Of a stretch of 64,000 nt of DNA, positions 1,134 to 48,759 are shown piece by piece. Location: NCBI RefSeq assembly GCF_003334765.1, contig NZ_QOWT01000020.1; one strand, written 5' to 3'. The notes below the pieces were generated by a model. It did not search any database. It saw only the letters and a list, made by a program, of their open reading frames with translations, and was not told the origin of the DNA. The position numbers and the translations under genes were made by a program. This DNA comes from Escherichia coli (GTDB lineage: Bacteria; Pseudomonadota; Gammaproteobacteria; Enterobacterales; Enterobacteriaceae). Within the stretch, counting starts at the first letter, position 1; each line of letters begins with the position of its first letter.

Positions 1134-1232
1134 GCCGGATGCGGCGTGAACGCCTTATCCGGCCTACAAAATCGCTTAAATTCAATATATTGCACCATCC
1201 TCGTAGGCCTGATAAGCGTAGCGCATCAGGCA
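1134..1232. repeat. REP/BIME element, RIP-type (two inverted REPs flanking a CAATATATTG core)
   Basis: GCCGGATGCGGCGTGAACGCCTTATCCGGCCTAC ... AATATATTG ... GTAGGCCTGATAAGCGTAGCGCATCAGGC read directly. Confidence 0.8.
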
Positions 1233-1252: not shown

Positions 1253-1286
1253 AAAAAAGGGCGATCTTGCGACCGCCCTTTTTTTA
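1253..1286. terminator. intrinsic terminator downstream of pgm (bidirectional hairpin flanked by A and T runs)
   Basis: AAAAAAGGGCGATCTTGCGACCGCCCTTTTTTT. Confidence 0.7.
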
Positions 1287-8482: not shown

Positions 8483-8506
8483 GCGAAGCGGAATTAATTC
8501 GCGAAG
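8483..8506. promoter_or_regulatory. palindrome GAATTAATTC with TTAATTCG motif, candidate NagC operator in the chiP upstream region
   Basis: Shares TTAATTCG with the nagE-nagB operator at 12673..12697; chiP is reported as NagC-repressed. Confidence 0.3.
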
Positions 8507-8510
8507 AAAA

Positions 8511-8541
8511 GCAGAAAAAACGCCGCTGAACGCGGCGTTTT
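8511..8541 (-). terminator. intrinsic terminator downstream of glnS
   Basis: AAAAAAACGCCGCTGAACGCGGCGTTTT; read on the minus strand the hairpin is followed by a U-run. Confidence 0.55.
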
Positions 8542-8560
8542 GGATTGTTTGCTGTTTCTT

Positions 8561-8724
8561 GCCGGATGCGGCGTGAACGCCTTATCCGGCCTACAAAAGC
8601 ACGCAAACTCAATATATTGCAGAGATCATGTAGGCCTGATAAGCGTAGCGCATCAGGCAATTTAGCGTTTGAAACTGTTTGTCTGTTCCTTGCCGGATGC
8701 GACGTAAACGCCCCATCCGGCATA
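8561..8724. repeat. BIME/RIP cluster: REP, CAATATATTG core, inverted REP, plus a third REP
   Basis: REP copies at about 8561-8594, 8630-8659 and 8692-8724; near-identical to the element at 1134..1232. Confidence 0.8.
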
Positions 8725-8737
8725 GCGAAACTTAAAA

Positions 8738-10402
8738 TTACTCGCCTACTTTCGCCCAGGTATCACGCAGCCCAACGGTGCGGTTAAATACCGGTTTTTC
8801 CGCCGTAGAATGGCGGCTATCGAGGCAGAAGTAACCTTCACGCTCAAACTGGAATGCTTTACCCGCAACCGCATCTTTCAGCGACGGTTCAGCAAAGCCC
8901 TGTTTGATCACCAGCGATTCCGGGTTAATCACCGACAGGAAATCATCCGCAGCACCTGGGTTAGGCACGCTGAACAGACGGTCATACAAACGGATTTCAA
9001 CCGGCAGCGCATGTGCCGCGCTCACCCAGTGAATAACACCTTTGACTTTACGACCATCTGCCGGATCTTTGCTTAAGGTATCGGCGTCATAAGTACAGAA
9101 GATGGTGGTGATATTACCTTCGGCATCTTTCTCGACGCGTTCTGCCTTAATCACATAAGCATTACGCAGACGCACTTCTTTACCCAGCACCAGACGTTTG
9201 TACTGCTTGTTAGCTTCTTCGCGGAAATCGGCGCGATCAATCCAAATCTCACCGCTAAACGGCACCTGACGGCTGCCCATTTCCGGTTTGTTCGGATGGT
9301 TCGGCATGGTAACCATTTCGCCTTCGCCCTGATAGTTTTCGATAACCAGTTTCACCGGATCGATAACCGCCATTGCGCGCGGCGCATTTTCGTTGAGATC
9401 TTCACGGATGCAGGATTCCAGCGACGCCATCTCAATGGTGTTGTCCTGCTTGGTCACGCCGATGCGTTTGCAGAACTCACGAATAGAAGCCGCAGTGTAA
9501 CCACGACGACGCAGACCGGAAATGGTCGGCATACGCGGGTCATCCCAGCCTTCAACGTGCTTGTCGGTCACCAGCAGGTTCAACTTACGCTTGGACATCA
9601 CGGTGTATTCCAGATTCAGGCGCGAGAACTCATACTGGCGCGGGTGAACAGGAATCGTGATGTTGTCCAGTACCCAGTCGTACAGACGACGGTTGTCCTG
9701 GAACTCAAGCGTACACAGAGAGTGCGTAATACCTTCCAGGGCATCGCTGATGCAGTGGGTGAAGTCGTACATCGGGTAGATGCACCACTTGTTGCCAGTC
9801 TGGTGGTGTTCAGCAAATTTAATACGGTACAGCACCGGATCGCGCATCACGATAAACGGTGAAGCCATGTCGATTTTCGCACGCAGGCAGGCTTTACCTT
9901 CTTCAAAACCACCGGCACGCATTTTTTCGAACAGCGCCAGGTTCTCTTCAACGCTGCGGTCGCGGTACGGGCTGTTTTTACCCGGTTGCGTCAGGGTGCC
10001 GCGGTATTCGCGGATCTGTTCCGGCGTCAGTTCATCAACGTACGCCAGGCCTTTATTGATCAGTTCGATCGCATAGGCGTGGAGCTGATCAAAATAATCG
10101 GAGGAGTAACGGACGTTACCAGACCAGTGAAAACCTAACCACTCTACGTCGTTTTTGATCGACTCAACATACTCGATATCTTCTTTTACCGGGTTAGTGT
10201 CGTCGAAACGCAGGTTGCACTGGCCTTTATAGTCCTGGGCGATCCCGAAGTTCAGGCAGATAGATTTCGCATGGCCAATATGCAGATAGCCATTCGGCTC
10301 CGGCGGGAAACGGGTGTGTACTGTGGTGTGCTTACCACTGGCCAGATCTTCATCGATGATCTGACGGATAAAGTTAGTCGGGCGGGCTTCTGCCTCACTC
10401 AT
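8738..10402 (-). CDS. glnS: glutaminyl-tRNA synthetase
   Basis: 554-aa [23 protein letters not shown] with HIGH (HIGHAK) and VMSKR motifs. Confidence 0.97.
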
Positions 10403-10604
10403 CGTGGATTCCTCAAAGCGTAAACAACGTATAACGGCGTATGATCTTATAAGCGGGACAGGCTGACAACTGTTAGTTTTTTAAAATTGATAATCTAACA
10501 AGGATTATGGGGATGATTGATGAAAAAAAAAGCGGCAGAGAAGATCTCCACCGCTTGTCATTGTTGGATGCGACGCTCAAGCGTCGCATCAGGCATAAAG
10601 CAGA

Positions 10605-16921: not shown

Positions 16922-16972
16922 ATAGCAACCACGTCTGCGGACGTGGTTGGCTCTGATGACAAACGCCAAACT

Positions 16973-17071
16973 GCCTGATGCGCTACGCTTATCAGGCCTA
17001 CGCAGCTCCTGCAATATATTGAATTTTCATGCTTTTGTAGGCCGGATAAGGCGTTCACGCCGCATCCGGCA
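16973..17071. repeat. REP/BIME element, RIP-type, inverted relative to the copy at 1134..1232
   Basis: TGCCTGATGCGCTACGCTTATCAGGCCTAC ... CAATATATTG ... TAGGCCGGATAAGGCGTTCACGCCGCATCCGGCA. Confidence 0.8.
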
Positions 17072-17317
17072 TGAACAAATCGCACTTTGTCAGCAATTTG
17101 GCCCCCGTAAAATATAAACATTCAATAAAACCCGCTAAAAATTATCGATTCATCAATAAATATATCCTCACACCAGACCTTTTTTCACCAATCGACAATC
17201 ACCATTACGTTTTTTATTTTTTCACCGCCAAATCGCTTGCGCACAGTGCTGCTTTGCGGCATTTTTTTAAACAAGCAAACACAACAAGCAACAAATACCA
17301 GGTTAACGGAGAAGGTT

Positions 17318-19321: not shown

Positions 19322-19361
19322 GCGCCCCGCAACGCCGATAAGGTATCGCGAAAAAAAAGAT

Positions 19362-19438
19362 GGCTACGTAGCTCAGTTGGTTAGAGCACATCACTCATAA
19401 TGATGGGGTCACAGGTTCGAATCCCGTCGTAGCCACCA
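19362..19438 (+). tRNA. metT: tRNA-Met (elongator, anticodon CAU)
   Basis: GGCTACGTAGCTCAGTTGGTTAGAGC...CTCATAA...GGTTCGAATCC...GTAGCCACCA. Confidence 0.95.
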
Positions 19439-19447
19439 TCTTTTTTT

Positions 19448-19532
19448 GCGGGAGTGGCGAAATTGGTAGACGCACCAGATTTAGGTTCTGGCGCCGCAAG
19501 GTGTGCGAGTTCAAGTCTCGCCTCCCGCACCA
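19448..19532 (+). tRNA. leuW: tRNA-Leu (anticodon UAG), long variable arm
   Basis: GCGGGAGTGGCGAAATTGGTAGACGC...TTTAGGT...CCTCCCGCACCA. Confidence 0.95.
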
Positions 19533-19555
19533 TTCACCAGAAAGCGTTGTACGGA

Positions 19556-19630
19556 TGGGGTATCGCCAAGCGGTAAGGCACCGGTTTTTGATACCGGCAT
19601 TCCCTGGTTCGAATCCAGGTACCCCAGCCA
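19556..19630 (+). tRNA. glnU: tRNA-Gln (anticodon UUG)
   Basis: TGGGGTATCGCCAAGCGGTAAGGCACCGGTTTTTGATACCGG...ACCCCAGCCA. Confidence 0.95.
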
Positions 19631-19645
19631 TCGAAGAAACAATCT

Positions 19646-19722
19646 GGCTACGTAGCTCAGTTGGTTAGAGCACATCACTCATAATGATGGGGTCACAGGT
19701 TCGAATCCCGTCGTAGCCACCA
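19646..19722 (+). tRNA. metU: tRNA-Met (elongator, anticodon CAU), second copy
   Basis: Identical to the tRNA at 19362..19438. Confidence 0.95.
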
Positions 19723-19769
19723 AATTCTGAATGTGTCGAATATGTTCGGCAAATTCAAAACCAATTTGT

Positions 19770-19844
19770 TGGGGTATCGCCAAGCGGTAAGGCACCGGAT
19801 TCTGATTCCGGCATTCCGAGGTTCGAATCCTCGTACCCCAGCCA
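19770..19844 (+). tRNA. glnV: tRNA-Gln (anticodon CUG)
   Basis: TGGGGTATCGCCAAGCGGTAAGGCACCGGATTCTGATTCCGG...ACCCCAGCCA. Confidence 0.95.
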
Positions 19845-19854
19845 CATTAAAAAA

Positions 19855-19892: not shown

Positions 19893-19988
19893 CAATGTCG
19901 AATGCGATGTTGACACGTCTTATCCTTCAATGTCGGATGCGACGCTGCCGCGTCTTATCCGACCTACGGTTGGCACGCATCCGGCAAT
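19893..19988. repeat. REP-like palindromic repeat cluster
   Basis: Repeated ATGTCG(A/G)ATGCGA...CGTCTTATCC units and GCACGCATCCGGCA. Confidence 0.6.
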
Positions 19989-34863: not shown

Positions 34864-35567
34864 AGGTCGCTCACATCCTTAAGCGTTACCGGGCATTCAG
34901 ACTGGACAGTTAATGGCTGCCAGGGAAGCGTGGCATAGAAACGATCGCTTCCCGCTGCCAGCTCTTCGAACATACGACTCCCGGCGCTATCGTATTTGTA
35001 CAGGGTTAGCGCCTCGCGTAGCGAAGTGTTGTCTTCGCACTGAGAAGATTGCCAGTAGAGACGTCCTAACGAATAGGCGGAAAAATAGTGCATCCAGCTG
35101 TGATAGTAATGGTGAGCTCGTACATAGACGCGCGATTGCAGCCATAAACTCTCTTCTTCCGTCAGCCACTTGTTGAGCACACCGACCCGTGACAGAAACC
35201 CCATTCGAACATAATCCCAGGCTTTGATTCCCCCTTCCCCACAGCACATAGCGGTTTGGGCAACGAATTGGGTATAAATCAACCCTCTCTCCGAGCCACC
35301 AGCAATTAATGCTTTCCACTCTTCAGGGGAAGAGCGATGCCATGTCAGATATAAGCCAGCTAAATCATTGGCATGACCATCATCAGTCATCTGATAAATA
35401 GTCTGAATTAAATCATCACGATTATTTATTCCCCAGGATGATGAGAGCTCGAATTCTTTTATCCCAGTATACATTTTTGGCGAGTCATGCGCGGGTTTGC
35501 AACCCTGATTAAGTATTTCCATGGGCGCAGAAAGCGCAAAAAGAAGATATTGTTCTTCCTTATTCAT
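34860..35567 (-). CDS. ybeU: DUF1266-family protein YbeU
   Basis: 235-aa ORF; stop overlaps the djlC start by 4 nt; paralogue of the ORF at 37657..38364. Confidence 0.9.
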
Positions 35568-36232: not shown

Positions 36233-37660
36233 TCACCCGAACAGATGGAGTATTTTCCCTATCAAACCAGCAAAGATAAAAATATAGAAAATAATTTTAA
36301 TGATGCCCAGACAGCCAGGCCCACCATCGTCAACGGGCATTGGCTGCGGTTGCGGCTCCGGTTCAACAGTTTGCTTCTCGGTAAAATTCGCCGCCTGAAT
36401 TAATAATCGACGAATAATTAATGCTTCCAGTGGACAACGATTTTCTGCATCAAGGCGGCTCACAATCGGCATTAATGATTCTTCTGTAGGTTGGCAGGCC
36501 TGCACTAATTGTTTGGCAACTAGATATAATGGCCATAAGGTATGTTCTGTATCACGCGTGAGTGAGATCCGCGGCTTACGTCCTTTGTGCAAAACCATCT
36601 CGACCAGTGAACGCCCCAGCGCAGAGAGTTTTTCATCGCTGAGTATTTCGTATAAATGAAAACGCGTACGGGCGCTGTCGCCGGGGACATAAAGTAGCGG
36701 TTTTCCCTGATCGTTAACCAGATCACGCGCTTCAATCATCATCACCAGTAATGGGTAATAATCGACCCGATGCTGACGGCACCATTGCAACATTAAAGCA
36801 TCCGCCTGGGTGGAGGGATACTCGCGCCAGTAGTCACAAAGTTCTGCCAACAGGCTTTCGCCTTCTCCACAATAGACGCGTTGCGCGTATTCATAATAAG
36901 GCGCATCTTCATTATCAGGTTCAGTTTCCCGCCATGACTGGGCGTAATCCAGAAGTTCGGGGATATCCAGGCGACCTGCGCTATACCAGCGGAGTAAATT
37001 TCTGTGCAGTTTTGCATCATCGGGGATAATCACTGCGCGATGTTGCGCTAAATACAATGTCAGCCATTGTGGATGCGATGACCAAATCCGAGCGAACATT
37101 TGGTAAAAATCGATGGTGTCATTTTGCACGGCAACGGGCAGATGCAGAATGGTCTGGAAGTTAAAAACATTCCCCTTCGCAATGGCATATAAAAAGGATT
37201 CCAGTTCTTCTTCGTCTATTTCCCCGGTATTTTCCTCCTGTAACCACCGCAATCTTTCTGCTAATAACACCACGCACTCGAAGGATAAATGGGCAGTGTT
37301 CATGGCGATTGTGCACAGCGACCAGCGTAATTCATCAATCTCCTCCATCGAGCAATAATTTAATTGCTGAATGAATCGCTGCCAGGCGGAGGGCAGAAAA
37401 CGTTCACTATCAGAGGCAAGTAACGCACGAAAGGCGAGCAGAATTTCATGTTCTGCTACCTCATATTCTTCTGGTTGCCAAACAGATTTAGCAGGCGACT
37501 GCGCAATCCGTAGCGCCTCCTCATACGCCTGACGAAGTTGTTTAAAACCCTGCGGATCGGTTTCTGGATGAAAGGACGGTAACAGCGCCAGATAAGCGCG
37601 GCGGATAATATCGACGTCAGTCGTTTCCTCTATATCGAGGATCTTCCAGCAATTTTTCAT
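36233..37660 (-). CDS. djlB: J-domain co-chaperone DjlB (YbeS), C-terminal hydrophobic tail
   Basis: 475-aa ORF; J-domain-like N-terminus (…[29 protein letters not shown]). Confidence 0.9.
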
Positions 37661-38364
37661 AGGTCGCTCATATCCTTAAGCGTTTCCGGGCATGCAGAAT
37701 AGTAAGCCAATGGTTGCCAGGACAAGGTAGGGTAATACGCATCATCACTGGCAAATAATTGATAAAACATATCATTGCCGGAATCGTCGTATTCTTTACG
37801 CGCTAAGAATTCGCGTAATAAAGGCAGATGATCATCTTCGGGAGACTGCCAATATTGCCGACCAAAGGTATAACCGGCAAAGTATTGCCGCCAGTTACTA
37901 TAATAACGTAGAGCCCGTAGATGAATGCGCGACTGGATCCATAGACTTTCTTCTTCGCTCAACCAGTTATTAAGTACGCCCATTCGGCTTAAAAAACCCA
38001 TCCGGACATAATCCCAGGCTTTGATTCCCCCTTCGCCACAGCATTCGGCGGTGCTGGCGACAAATTGCGCATAAGCCTGACCTTGCTCATTTAGTTCAGC
38101 AAGATAGTCACGCCATTCACATGGCGAATAACGAAACCAGCGGTGATAAAACCCTGCCAACCGAGCGGCATGACCGTTATCGATCATTCGGTGAATTGTG
38201 CGCAGCAGGTCATCACGGTCATCAATTCCCCATGAGGAAGAAAGGTCAAAAAAGCATGTACCTAAATACATTTTGGGTGATGAATGCGAAGGTAAACAGC
38301 ATTCATTGCGTATTTCCATCGGAGTGGAAAGTGCAAACAATATTTTTTGCGACTCCATGTCCAT
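37657..38364 (-). CDS. ybeR: DUF1266-family protein YbeR
   Basis: 235-aa ORF; stop overlaps the djlB start by 4 nt; shares the [20 protein letters not shown] block with YbeU. Confidence 0.9.
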
Positions 38365-46857: not shown

Positions 46858-48759
46858 ATGAAACTACAGAACTCTTTTCGCGACTATACGGCAGAGTCCG
46901 CGCTGTTTGTGCGCCGGGCGCTGGTCGCCTTTTTGGGGATTTTGCTGCTGACCGGCGTGCTTATCGCCAACCTGTATAATCTGCAAATTGTTCGCTTTAC
47001 CGACTACCAGACCCGCTCTAATGAAAACCGCATTAAGCTGGTGCCTATCGCGCCCAGCCGCGGCATTATCTACGATCGTAACGGTATCCCTCTGGCCCTC
47101 AACCGCACTATCTACCAGATAGAAATGATGCCGGAGAAAGTCGATAACGTGCAGCAAACGCTGGACGCTTTGCGCAGCGTGGTAGATCTGACCGATGACG
47201 ATATTGCTGCATTCCGAAAAGAGCGCGCACGTTCACACCGTTTCACCTCTATTCCGGTGAAAACTAACCTGACCGAAGTACAAGTAGCTCGCTTTGCCGT
47301 CAATCAGTACCGTTTTCCGGGTGTCGAAGTTAAAGGCTATAAACGTCGTTACTATCCTTACGGTTCGGCGTTGACCCACGTCATCGGCTATGTGTCGAAA
47401 ATCAACGATAAAGACGTCGAACGCCTGAATAATGACGGCAAACTGGCCAACTATGCGGCAACGCATGATATCGGTAAGCTGGGCATTGAGCGTTACTATG
47501 AAGATGTGCTGCACGGTCAGACCGGTTATGAAGAGGTTGAAGTTAACAACCGTGGGCGTGTTATTCGCCAGTTAAAAGAAGTACCACCGCAAGCCGGACA
47601 CGATATTTACCTGACGCTGGATCTCAAACTCCAGCAATATATTGAAACGCTGCTGGCGGGTAGCCGCGCAGCTGTGGTAGTCACCGATCCGCGTACAGGT
47701 GGGGTGCTGGCGCTGGTTTCCACGCCTAGTTATGACCCAAACTTGTTTGTTGACGGTATCTCCAGCAAAGATTATTCCGCCTTGTTGAACGATCCGAATA
47801 CACCGCTGGTGAACCGCGCCACACAGGGGGTTTATCCTCCCGCGTCTACAGTTAAACCCTATGTGGCGGTTTCGGCATTGAGCGCCGGGGTGATCACGCG
47901 CAATACGACGCTGTTTGACCCAGGCTGGTGGCAACTGCCAGGTTCGGAAAAACGTTATCGTGACTGGAAAAAATGGGGCCACGGGCGTCTGAATGTCACA
48001 AGATCGCTGGAAGAATCTGCGGATACCTTCTTCTATCAGGTGGCCTACGATATGGGGATCGATCGCCTCTCCGAATGGATGGGTAAATTCGGTTATGGTC
48101 ATTACACCGGTATCGACCTGGCGGAAGAACGTTCCGGCAACATGCCTACCCGCGAATGGAAACAGAAACGCTTTAAAAAACCGTGGTATCAGGGTGACAC
48201 CATTCCGGTTGGTATCGGTCAGGGTTACTGGACAGCGACCCCAATCCAGATGAGTAAGGCACTGATGATCCTGATTAATGACGGTATCGTGAAGGTTCCT
48301 CATTTGCTGATGAGCACCGCCGAAGACGGCAAACAGGAGCCATGGGTACAGCCGCATGAACCGCCCGTCGGCGATATTCATTCCGGTTACTGGGAGCTGG
48401 CGAAAGACGGTATGTACGGTGTTGCTAACCGCCCTAACGGTACGGCGCATAAATACTTTGCTAGCGCACCGTACAAAATTGCGGCGAAATCCGGTACCGC
48501 TCAGGTCTTCGGTCTGAAAGCGAACGAAACCTATAATGCGCACAAAATTGCCGAGCGTTTACGTGACCACAAACTGATGACCGCCTTTGCGCCATACAAC
48601 AATCCGCAAGTGGCTGTCGCCATGATTCTGGAGAACGGTGGTGCGGGTCCGGCGGTTGGTACACTGATGCGCCAGATCCTCGACCACATTATGCTGGGTG
48701 ATAACAACACCGATCTGCCTGCGGAAAATCCAGCGGTTGCCGCAGCGGAGGACCATTAA
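46858..48759 (+). CDS. mrdA: penicillin-binding protein 2
   Basis: 633-aa ORF with STVK (active-site Ser), SxD and KSGT motifs. Confidence 0.97.

Follow-up and report, generated by a model that had tools for sequence, protein, structure and literature searches.

The window analysed here, a stretch of 64,000 nucleotides of Escherichia coli DNA, matches positions 696000-716000 of K-12 MG1655 (NC_000913.3) over its first 20 kb with 99.97% identity and in reverse orientation, so that a K-12 coordinate equals 716495 minus the window position. Because the window aligns to K-12 in reverse, its genes follow in the order ybfP, pgm, seqA ... chiP, glnS, nagE, nagBACD (nagD being umpH) and asnB. The mapping to NC_000913.3 also bears out the names pgm, glnS and nagD, which the initial annotation had given to the genes next to three composite repeat units. 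These units start 64 nt (pgm), 78 nt (glnS) and 50 nt (nagD/umpH) past the respective stop codons and hence lie, as had been claimed, just downstream of gene 3' ends. No repeat features are listed in the RefSeq annotation of either K-12 MG1655 or W3110.

Each unit is 99 nt long and consists of a 34-nt REP (GCCGGATGCGGCGTGAACGCCTTATCCGGCCTAC), a 35-nt linker (L) containing CAATATATTG, and a 30-nt inverted REP (GTAGGCCTGATAAGCGTAGCGCATCAGGCA), with the tails of both REPs (CTAC/GTAG) pointing towards the linker. The two REP sequences are what we take to be types Y and Z1, respectively, after the published consensus sequences. Unit 1 (1134-1232, plus strand; K-12 715263-715361) is formed by the Y REP at 1134-1167, the linker at 1168-1202 and the inverted Z1 REP at 1203-1232; unit 2 (8561-8659, plus strand; K-12 707836-707934) by the same parts at 8561-8594, 8595-8629 and 8630-8659; and unit 3 (minus strand; K-12 699425-699523) by the Y REP at 17070-17037, the linker at 17036-17002 and the Z1 REP at 17001-16972. 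The first two units had been placed exactly from the outset, while the third, originally given as 16973..17071, was one base off and spans 16972-17070 when kept in register with the others. The common layout proposed for the three is fully present and aligns without gaps: no difference separates the Y or the Z1 REPs of the three units (100% identity), and pairwise comparison gives 23-25 of 35 identical positions for the linkers and 87-89 of 99 for the whole units, so that the central segments are indeed related. All linkers start with AAAA and carry TCAATATATTGCA in their centre, a 13-mer whose only three exact occurrences in the 64 kb are those in the three units; when up to two mismatches are allowed, there are 10 matches in the window versus 2.0 expected from shuffles. 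A candidate fourth copy at 47633, with one mismatch to the 13-mer, has no adjoining REP and lies in apparent coding sequence, and was taken as a chance match. There is one unit per locus and no tandem array, the second locus having an additional lone Y-like REP. Finally, the Rfam model naRNA4, which describes a Y-Z2 arrangement, matches only the first REP of the units (the Y half), where its 38-42 bits fall short of the gathering score of 59.5, and this limitation to the Y half supports the Y/Z1 typing.

Composite elements of this kind, known as BIME-1, RIP or RIB, were described in 1991-1993, and the three K-12 intergenic regions in question count as standard examples of the class. The units of the window are very probably BIME-1 copies, that is, a Y REP and an inverted Z1 REP around the L linker; this identity was already known and carries little weight as a discovery. 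The proposed assignment to the RIP/RIB class of BIMEs agrees with the published definition of BIME-1 (PMC3333891; PMC2817692), as judged with GCCGGATGCGGCGTGAACGCCTTATCCGGCCTAC for Y and GCCTGATGCGCTACGCTTATCAGGCCTAC for the inverted Z1. According to Ton-Hoang et al. 2012 (PMC3333891), BIME-1 comprises a Y and an inverted Z1 REP around a long conserved L linker with a reported IHF site, and the same account is given by Nunvar et al. 2010 (PMC2817692) and Delihas 2011 (PMC3184786), with the names RIB and RIP being credited to Boccard & Prentki 1993 and Oppenheim et al. 1993 in PMC2817692 and PMC3184786. Each unit also constitutes an inverted REP doublet, as would be expected of a REPIN.

The similarity between the units outruns the 99 nt of the core. 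Units 1 and 3 can be aligned over 141 nt (1108-1248 on the plus strand versus 16956-17096 on the minus strand), where the two form an inverted repeat with 85% identity, and units 1 and 2 over 116 nt. The flanks of element 1 (left ..TGACAAAGTG..TTGTT.., right ..GTGTTTGTCA) are inverted copies of each other, a flank consensus having been built from 76 copies among the matches listed for the genome scan described below. In the predicted fold of units 1 and 3, the flanks TGACAAAG... and ...CTTTGTCA (in transcript reading) pair with each other and close the whole element. The conserved element is thus about 140-150 nt long with inverted flanks, rather than 99 nt. Compared with shuffled sequence, the RNA folds of the three 3' regions reach z-scores of -6.6, -4.2 and -5.5.

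The setting differs from one gene to the next. Unit 1 lies between the pgm terminator and ybfP. This intrinsic terminator, a hairpin followed by a U-tract (1253-1284, minus strand), stands between the pgm stop codon and the unit; its 14-bp hairpin is evident in the predicted fold, though a simple terminator scan did not pick it up. Unit 1 is probably little transcribed from pgm, and any role of it at the RNA level is doubtful, since it is found downstream of this strong terminator. Unit 3 is located between nagD (umpH) and asnB, and follows a nagD 3' hairpin (16926-16949, plus strand) which, in the allele of the window, has no T-tract after it.

Unit 2, on the other hand, is placed within the glnS 3' UTR and upstream of the terminator. 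The order here is the stop codon (8738-8740), a lone Y-like REP, the BIME-1 and a bidirectional intrinsic terminator at 8517-8541, which has a 10-bp stem and a T-run on either strand and at which the glnS transcript ends. The range 8561..8724, to which the composite element had been ascribed, does contain the complete unit at 8561-8659; the remainder additionally takes in the lone REP (8692-8724, plus strand), a degenerate sequence with 28 of 34 positions identical to the Y REP. This lone REP points the same way as the Y REP of unit 2, lies 32 nt beyond the Z1 end of that unit and is preceded by a similar 15-nt flank; the end of its stem is 16 nt past the glnS stop codon, and it pairs with the Y REP of unit 2 in the predicted RNA fold. 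Several E. coli strains, e.g., NT1F25, YPE10 and STEC276, carry an IS1 insertion within 8500-8508. In NT1F25, the one strain checked, IS1 has entered at 8500-8508, where 9 bp of target are duplicated; this places it next to the glnS terminator and outside the BIME-1, at a distance of 52 nt.

Other repeats were seen elsewhere in the window. Three lone REPs without an L linker are found at 10563-10594, 19927-19966 and 33361-33390, two of them Z2-like (one between nagE and glnS, the other next to a tRNA cluster) and the one at 33361 Y-like. The tRNA cluster itself (19350-19850) has five tRNA genes versus seven in MG1655 (metT-leuW-glnU-glnW-metU-glnV-glnX) and is about 221 bp shorter, as if each tRNA-Gln duplicate pair had collapsed to one. 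Furthermore, the segments 34505-35277 and 37302-38074 share three direct-repeat blocks of 171-232 nt, which are 72-77% identical and all lie 2797 nt apart. This pattern points to a segment of several hundred bases that was duplicated in tandem long ago, and is unrelated to the BIME-1 units.

A wider sample of the family was obtained by scanning bacterial species, each represented by a single genome, for CCGGCCTAC-N(30-40)-GTAGGCCTGAT, a pattern that specifies the REP tails only and leaves the linker free. The scan yielded at least 120 loci, a few of them on likely contaminant contigs, and the sources among the matches listed are E. albertii, E. coli, Pseudocitrobacter, Citrobacter, Kosakonia, Pluralibacter, Superficieibacter and Salmonella arizonae. 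Once the window and the K-12 locus had been added, at least 138 REP pairs were available, the three copies of the window being counted twice in this number (once in the window and once in the K-12 locus). At least 81 of these 138 pairs have a 35-nt linker, nearly always with the same L sequence (consensus AAAATCGTGCAAATTCAATATATTGCAGAAACCTT). Among the matches listed, 83 of 95 L-type copies adjoin a gene 3' end, and 39 of the 95 lie between convergent genes versus a single one between divergent genes. The Z1 REP faces the upstream gene first in all three copies of the window; a fixed orientation relative to the upstream gene was rejected, as the copies elsewhere that lie in tandem-gene contexts are split 10:6 among the matches listed, so that no clear orientation rule emerges. 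As for matches outside Enterobacteriaceae, a 262-bp contig in the assembly of Desulfosporosinus sp. OT (L042) has a perfectly enterobacterial L linker and is probably a contamination, while the Lamellibrachia endosymbiont assemblies (L037, L038 and L114) and an Enhydrobacter MAG (L126) have unrelated linkers and probably represent chance matches or unrelated REPs.

The central feature of the L linker is a motif, A[T/C]TCAATATATTG, with one mismatch to the IHF consensus WATCAANNNNTTR and an A-tract 8 nt upstream. A search for this consensus finds it with a single mismatch in all three linkers, on the strand that reads from Y to Z1: as ATTCAATATATTG in unit 1 (1180-1192, plus strand; A-tract AAAA at 1168-1171), as ACTCAATATATTG in unit 2 (8607-8619, plus strand; A-tract at 8595-8598), and again as ATTCAATATATTG in unit 3 (17012-17024, minus strand). 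Taken alone, such a match is worthless as evidence, because the window contains 67 one-mismatch matches to WATCAANNNNTTR versus 60 expected by chance. The real support for the predicted IHF site comes instead from the conservation profile of 78 independent copies among the matches listed, which peaks at the A-tract and at TTCAA-N4-TTG. Mean information content in this set of matches is 1.49 bits at the positions specified by IHF (13-18 and 23-25), 1.35 bits in the A-tract (positions 1-4) and 1.15 bits at the N4 positions, versus 0.72 bits at linker positions 5-12 and 0.55 bits at positions 28-35. In the described anatomy of IHF sites, one half holds 4-6 adenines as an A-tract and the other half holds WATCAR-N4-TTR (bioRxiv 10.1101/382655), and the linker profile corresponds to this layout of strong IHF sites. 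None of the 78 copies among the matches listed has a perfect IHF consensus, and in 59 of them the one departure is identical, a T instead of A at position 2 (ATTCAA versus WATCAA). The central 14-18 nt of the three linkers of the window are identical to the consensus of 76-78 independent copies among the matches listed. The conservation of the linker could partly reflect copying fidelity instead of selection for binding. The supplements of a Dps ChIP paper list no site at any of the three loci.

When considered from a mechanistic point of view, two levels of action can be proposed. On double-stranded DNA, the 35-bp linker would serve as an IHF site (A-tract, 8 bp, ATTCAA-N4-TTG), as suggested by published work on the family together with the motif; its length is about that of one IHF footprint, and IHF would bend it sharply, thus bringing the two G+C-rich REP arms side by side. 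Where the element is transcribed within a 3' UTR, which should certainly be the case for glnS and probably for nagD, the REP hairpins are expected to form very stable structures, which would block 3'-to-5' exonucleases and partly attenuate read-through, as has been demonstrated for other REP/BIME elements. Roles of REPs as stabilisers or attenuators in 3' UTRs are discussed in bioRxiv 10.64898/2026.03.23.713779 and PMC3333891. The element itself would be a REP doublet that is not autonomous and that would be gained and lost by means of the REP-associated Y1 transposase TnpA-REP/RAYT or through recombination between flanking repeats.

All three copies vary among E. coli strains. In a set of 5,426 complete genomes, the K-12-type allele is present at pgm in 2,137 (39%), at glnS in 2,457 (45%) and at nagD in 2,283 (42%), the polymorphic intervals being 1120-1250 (pgm), 8561-8691 (glnS) and 16947-17107 (nagD); since each copy is absent from 55-61% of these genomes, none of the three is essential. 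For instance, O157:H7 has the glnS copy and lacks that of nagD, and O26:H11 lacks the glnS copy. The empty glnS allele has only one Y REP, a degenerate one, and falls short of the filled allele by 131 bp, which is the exact spacing of the direct Y REPs at 8561 and 8692. In the window, this 131-bp segment, missing in 55% of the genomes, is bounded by imperfect direct repeats of about 49 nt (8546-8594 and 8676-8724), each composed of a 15-nt flank plus a Y REP. The difference is consistent either with a deletion by recombination between the Y REPs or with an insertion beside a pre-existing REP.

At nagD, the empty allele has 21 nt (TTTCTTATTTTTACCCATCAT, the T-tract of a terminator) versus about 161 nt in the window (indel ~16947-17107). 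Where unit 3 is missing, TTTCTTATTTTT comes after the nagD hairpin and makes it a proper intrinsic terminator (L007:647-690; compare window 16926-16971). The hairpin of the window has no U-tract because this 21-nt stretch is replaced by the ~161 nt that contain the BIME-1. At pgm, genomes that do not have the element also lack ybfP, and their potE stands directly against the pgm terminator, most other strains having a single terminator, whereas in K-12 ybfP/ybfG lie on the far side of the BIME-1. The divergent strain E69 (CP089930.1; L118:12540-12760) has a BIME-1 between convergent potE and pgm, without ybfP; similar terminator hairpins, starting with AAGTAAAAA(A)GGGCGATC, stand on both sides of it.

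These allele pairs lead to a tentative proposal, which we regard as rather doubtful, namely that the three copies are insertions or deletions, variable between strains, through which housekeeping transcripts have their 3' ends rewired. If this were true, termination and stability of the nag operon transcript, as well as read-through into asnB, would depend on the BIME-1 in the nagD allele that has the element and no terminator U-tract, and at glnS the element would lengthen the 3' UTR by about 130 nt of structured sequence, placed between a REP and the terminator. The natural alleles, in a ratio of roughly 40:60 among E. coli, would then be ready-made tests of BIME-1 and IHF at gene ends, and the long direct repeats at the glnS allele and at the E69 pgm allele would hint at hairpin-targeted gain and loss. 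The practical outcome is an annotation confirmed with exact sub-coordinates, together with natural allele pairs that may serve to probe what BIME-1 and its putative IHF site do.

A different explanation starts from the same polymorphism. The copies may be purely selfish, non-autonomous mobile DNA, i.e., a REP doublet or REPIN moved by RAYT/TnpA-REP without any host function, in which the linker is kept because it is needed for mobilisation, or in which the copies are simply young. We see this as possible, if on balance unlikely. It would agree with the occurrence of each copy in just 39-45% of the 5,426 complete genomes, with the inverted symmetry of the whole element including its flanks, reminiscent of terminal inverted repeats, and with the direct repeats found on either side of the filled allele at glnS and of the E69 allele at pgm; moreover, TnpA-REP cleaves and recombines BIMEs in vitro, at sites that include the linker (PMC3333891). 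However, several genera have kept the same L sequence, and its position-specific profile matches the IHF layout instead of showing uniform similarity, the copies are strongly biased to gene 3' ends and convergent intergenic regions, and the nagD site, where 21 nt are replaced by ~161 nt, shows no target-site duplication. Mobility of this kind is also compatible with IHF binding and is therefore not an exclusive alternative to the proposed IHF site.

The initial annotation had mentioned DNA gyrase next to IHF, and the main role of the units might be that of a gyrase site or topological insulator, as for BIME-2; we hold this to be quite improbable. Gyrase does bind to REPs, and supercoiling can be insulated by a BIME (cited in PMC6907758 and PMC6379681); among the REP types, Y is the one that gyrase cleaves by preference (PMC6379681). 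Nevertheless, the published genome-wide enrichment of cleavage concerns BIME-2, with tandem Y-Z2 repeats, and not BIME-1, cleavage sites are slightly under-represented at IHF sites (PMC6379681), and the units of the window are single Y-L-Z1 elements instead of tandem arrays. The suggestion of gyrase binding is therefore weak and fits BIME-2 better than BIME-1.

Least probable is that the linker encodes the small RNA ES036/CssrF (Rfam RF02751), with the TGCAA/TTGCA hairpin as the functional unit, a reading that was rejected for want of covariation. A cssrF transcript of about 290 nt has been seen in Shigella flexneri between dacB and yhbZ (PMC3071730), and the ES036 model matches unit 3 (16994-17036, minus strand) at 41.1 bits, above the gathering score of 37.6, whereas unit 2 (8595-8637; 28.9 bits) and unit 1 (1168-1210; 24.7 bits) fall below it. 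Yet what the 43-nt model describes is in essence the L linker and, after it, the REP tail GTAGGCCT (the start of the Z1 tail), so that its match restates the repeat. Across 77 distinct copies among the matches listed, 64.7% of the cells of the hairpin are paired versus 62.9% in shuffles, which is no convincing covariation, and changes at its inner pairs are mostly one-sided and pair-breaking, so that it is the sequence that is conserved and not the pairing. Besides, the match in unit 3 is antisense to nagD and asnB, with just a weak promoter-like match upstream. Rfam ES036 seems to be a fragment of a BIME-1 copy and is, in effect, a model of the BIME-1 linker.

Among known systems, ES036 (CssrF) resembles the units in that its model spans the L linker and unit 3 passes its threshold, and differs in that its hairpin lacks support from covariation. 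In the 35-mer of the IHF site H' of lambda attP, A-tract and hexamer have the same 8-bp spacing as in the linker. H' likewise has the A-tract in one half and WATCAR-N4-TTR in the other (layout according to bioRxiv 10.1101/382655); in contrast, the hexamer of the linker is ATTCAA and not TATCAA, and the linker belongs to a repeat element instead of a recombination site. BIME-2 (tandem Y-Z2, e.g., REP325/naRNA4, with gyrase sites) has the same Y REP and is also extragenic and found in 3' UTRs. Membership in BIME-2 was nevertheless rejected, since the partner REP is Z1 and not Z2, the linker is the long L of 35 nt instead of the short S, there is no tandem repetition, and naRNA4 matches the Y half only. 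With BIME-1, finally, the units share a Y and an inverted Z1 REP whose tails face a 35-nt L linker with an IHF-type motif, as well as their single-copy, extragenic occurrence at gene 3' ends; they differ from it in nothing of substance, the extra lone Y-like REP beside unit 2 being the only addition.
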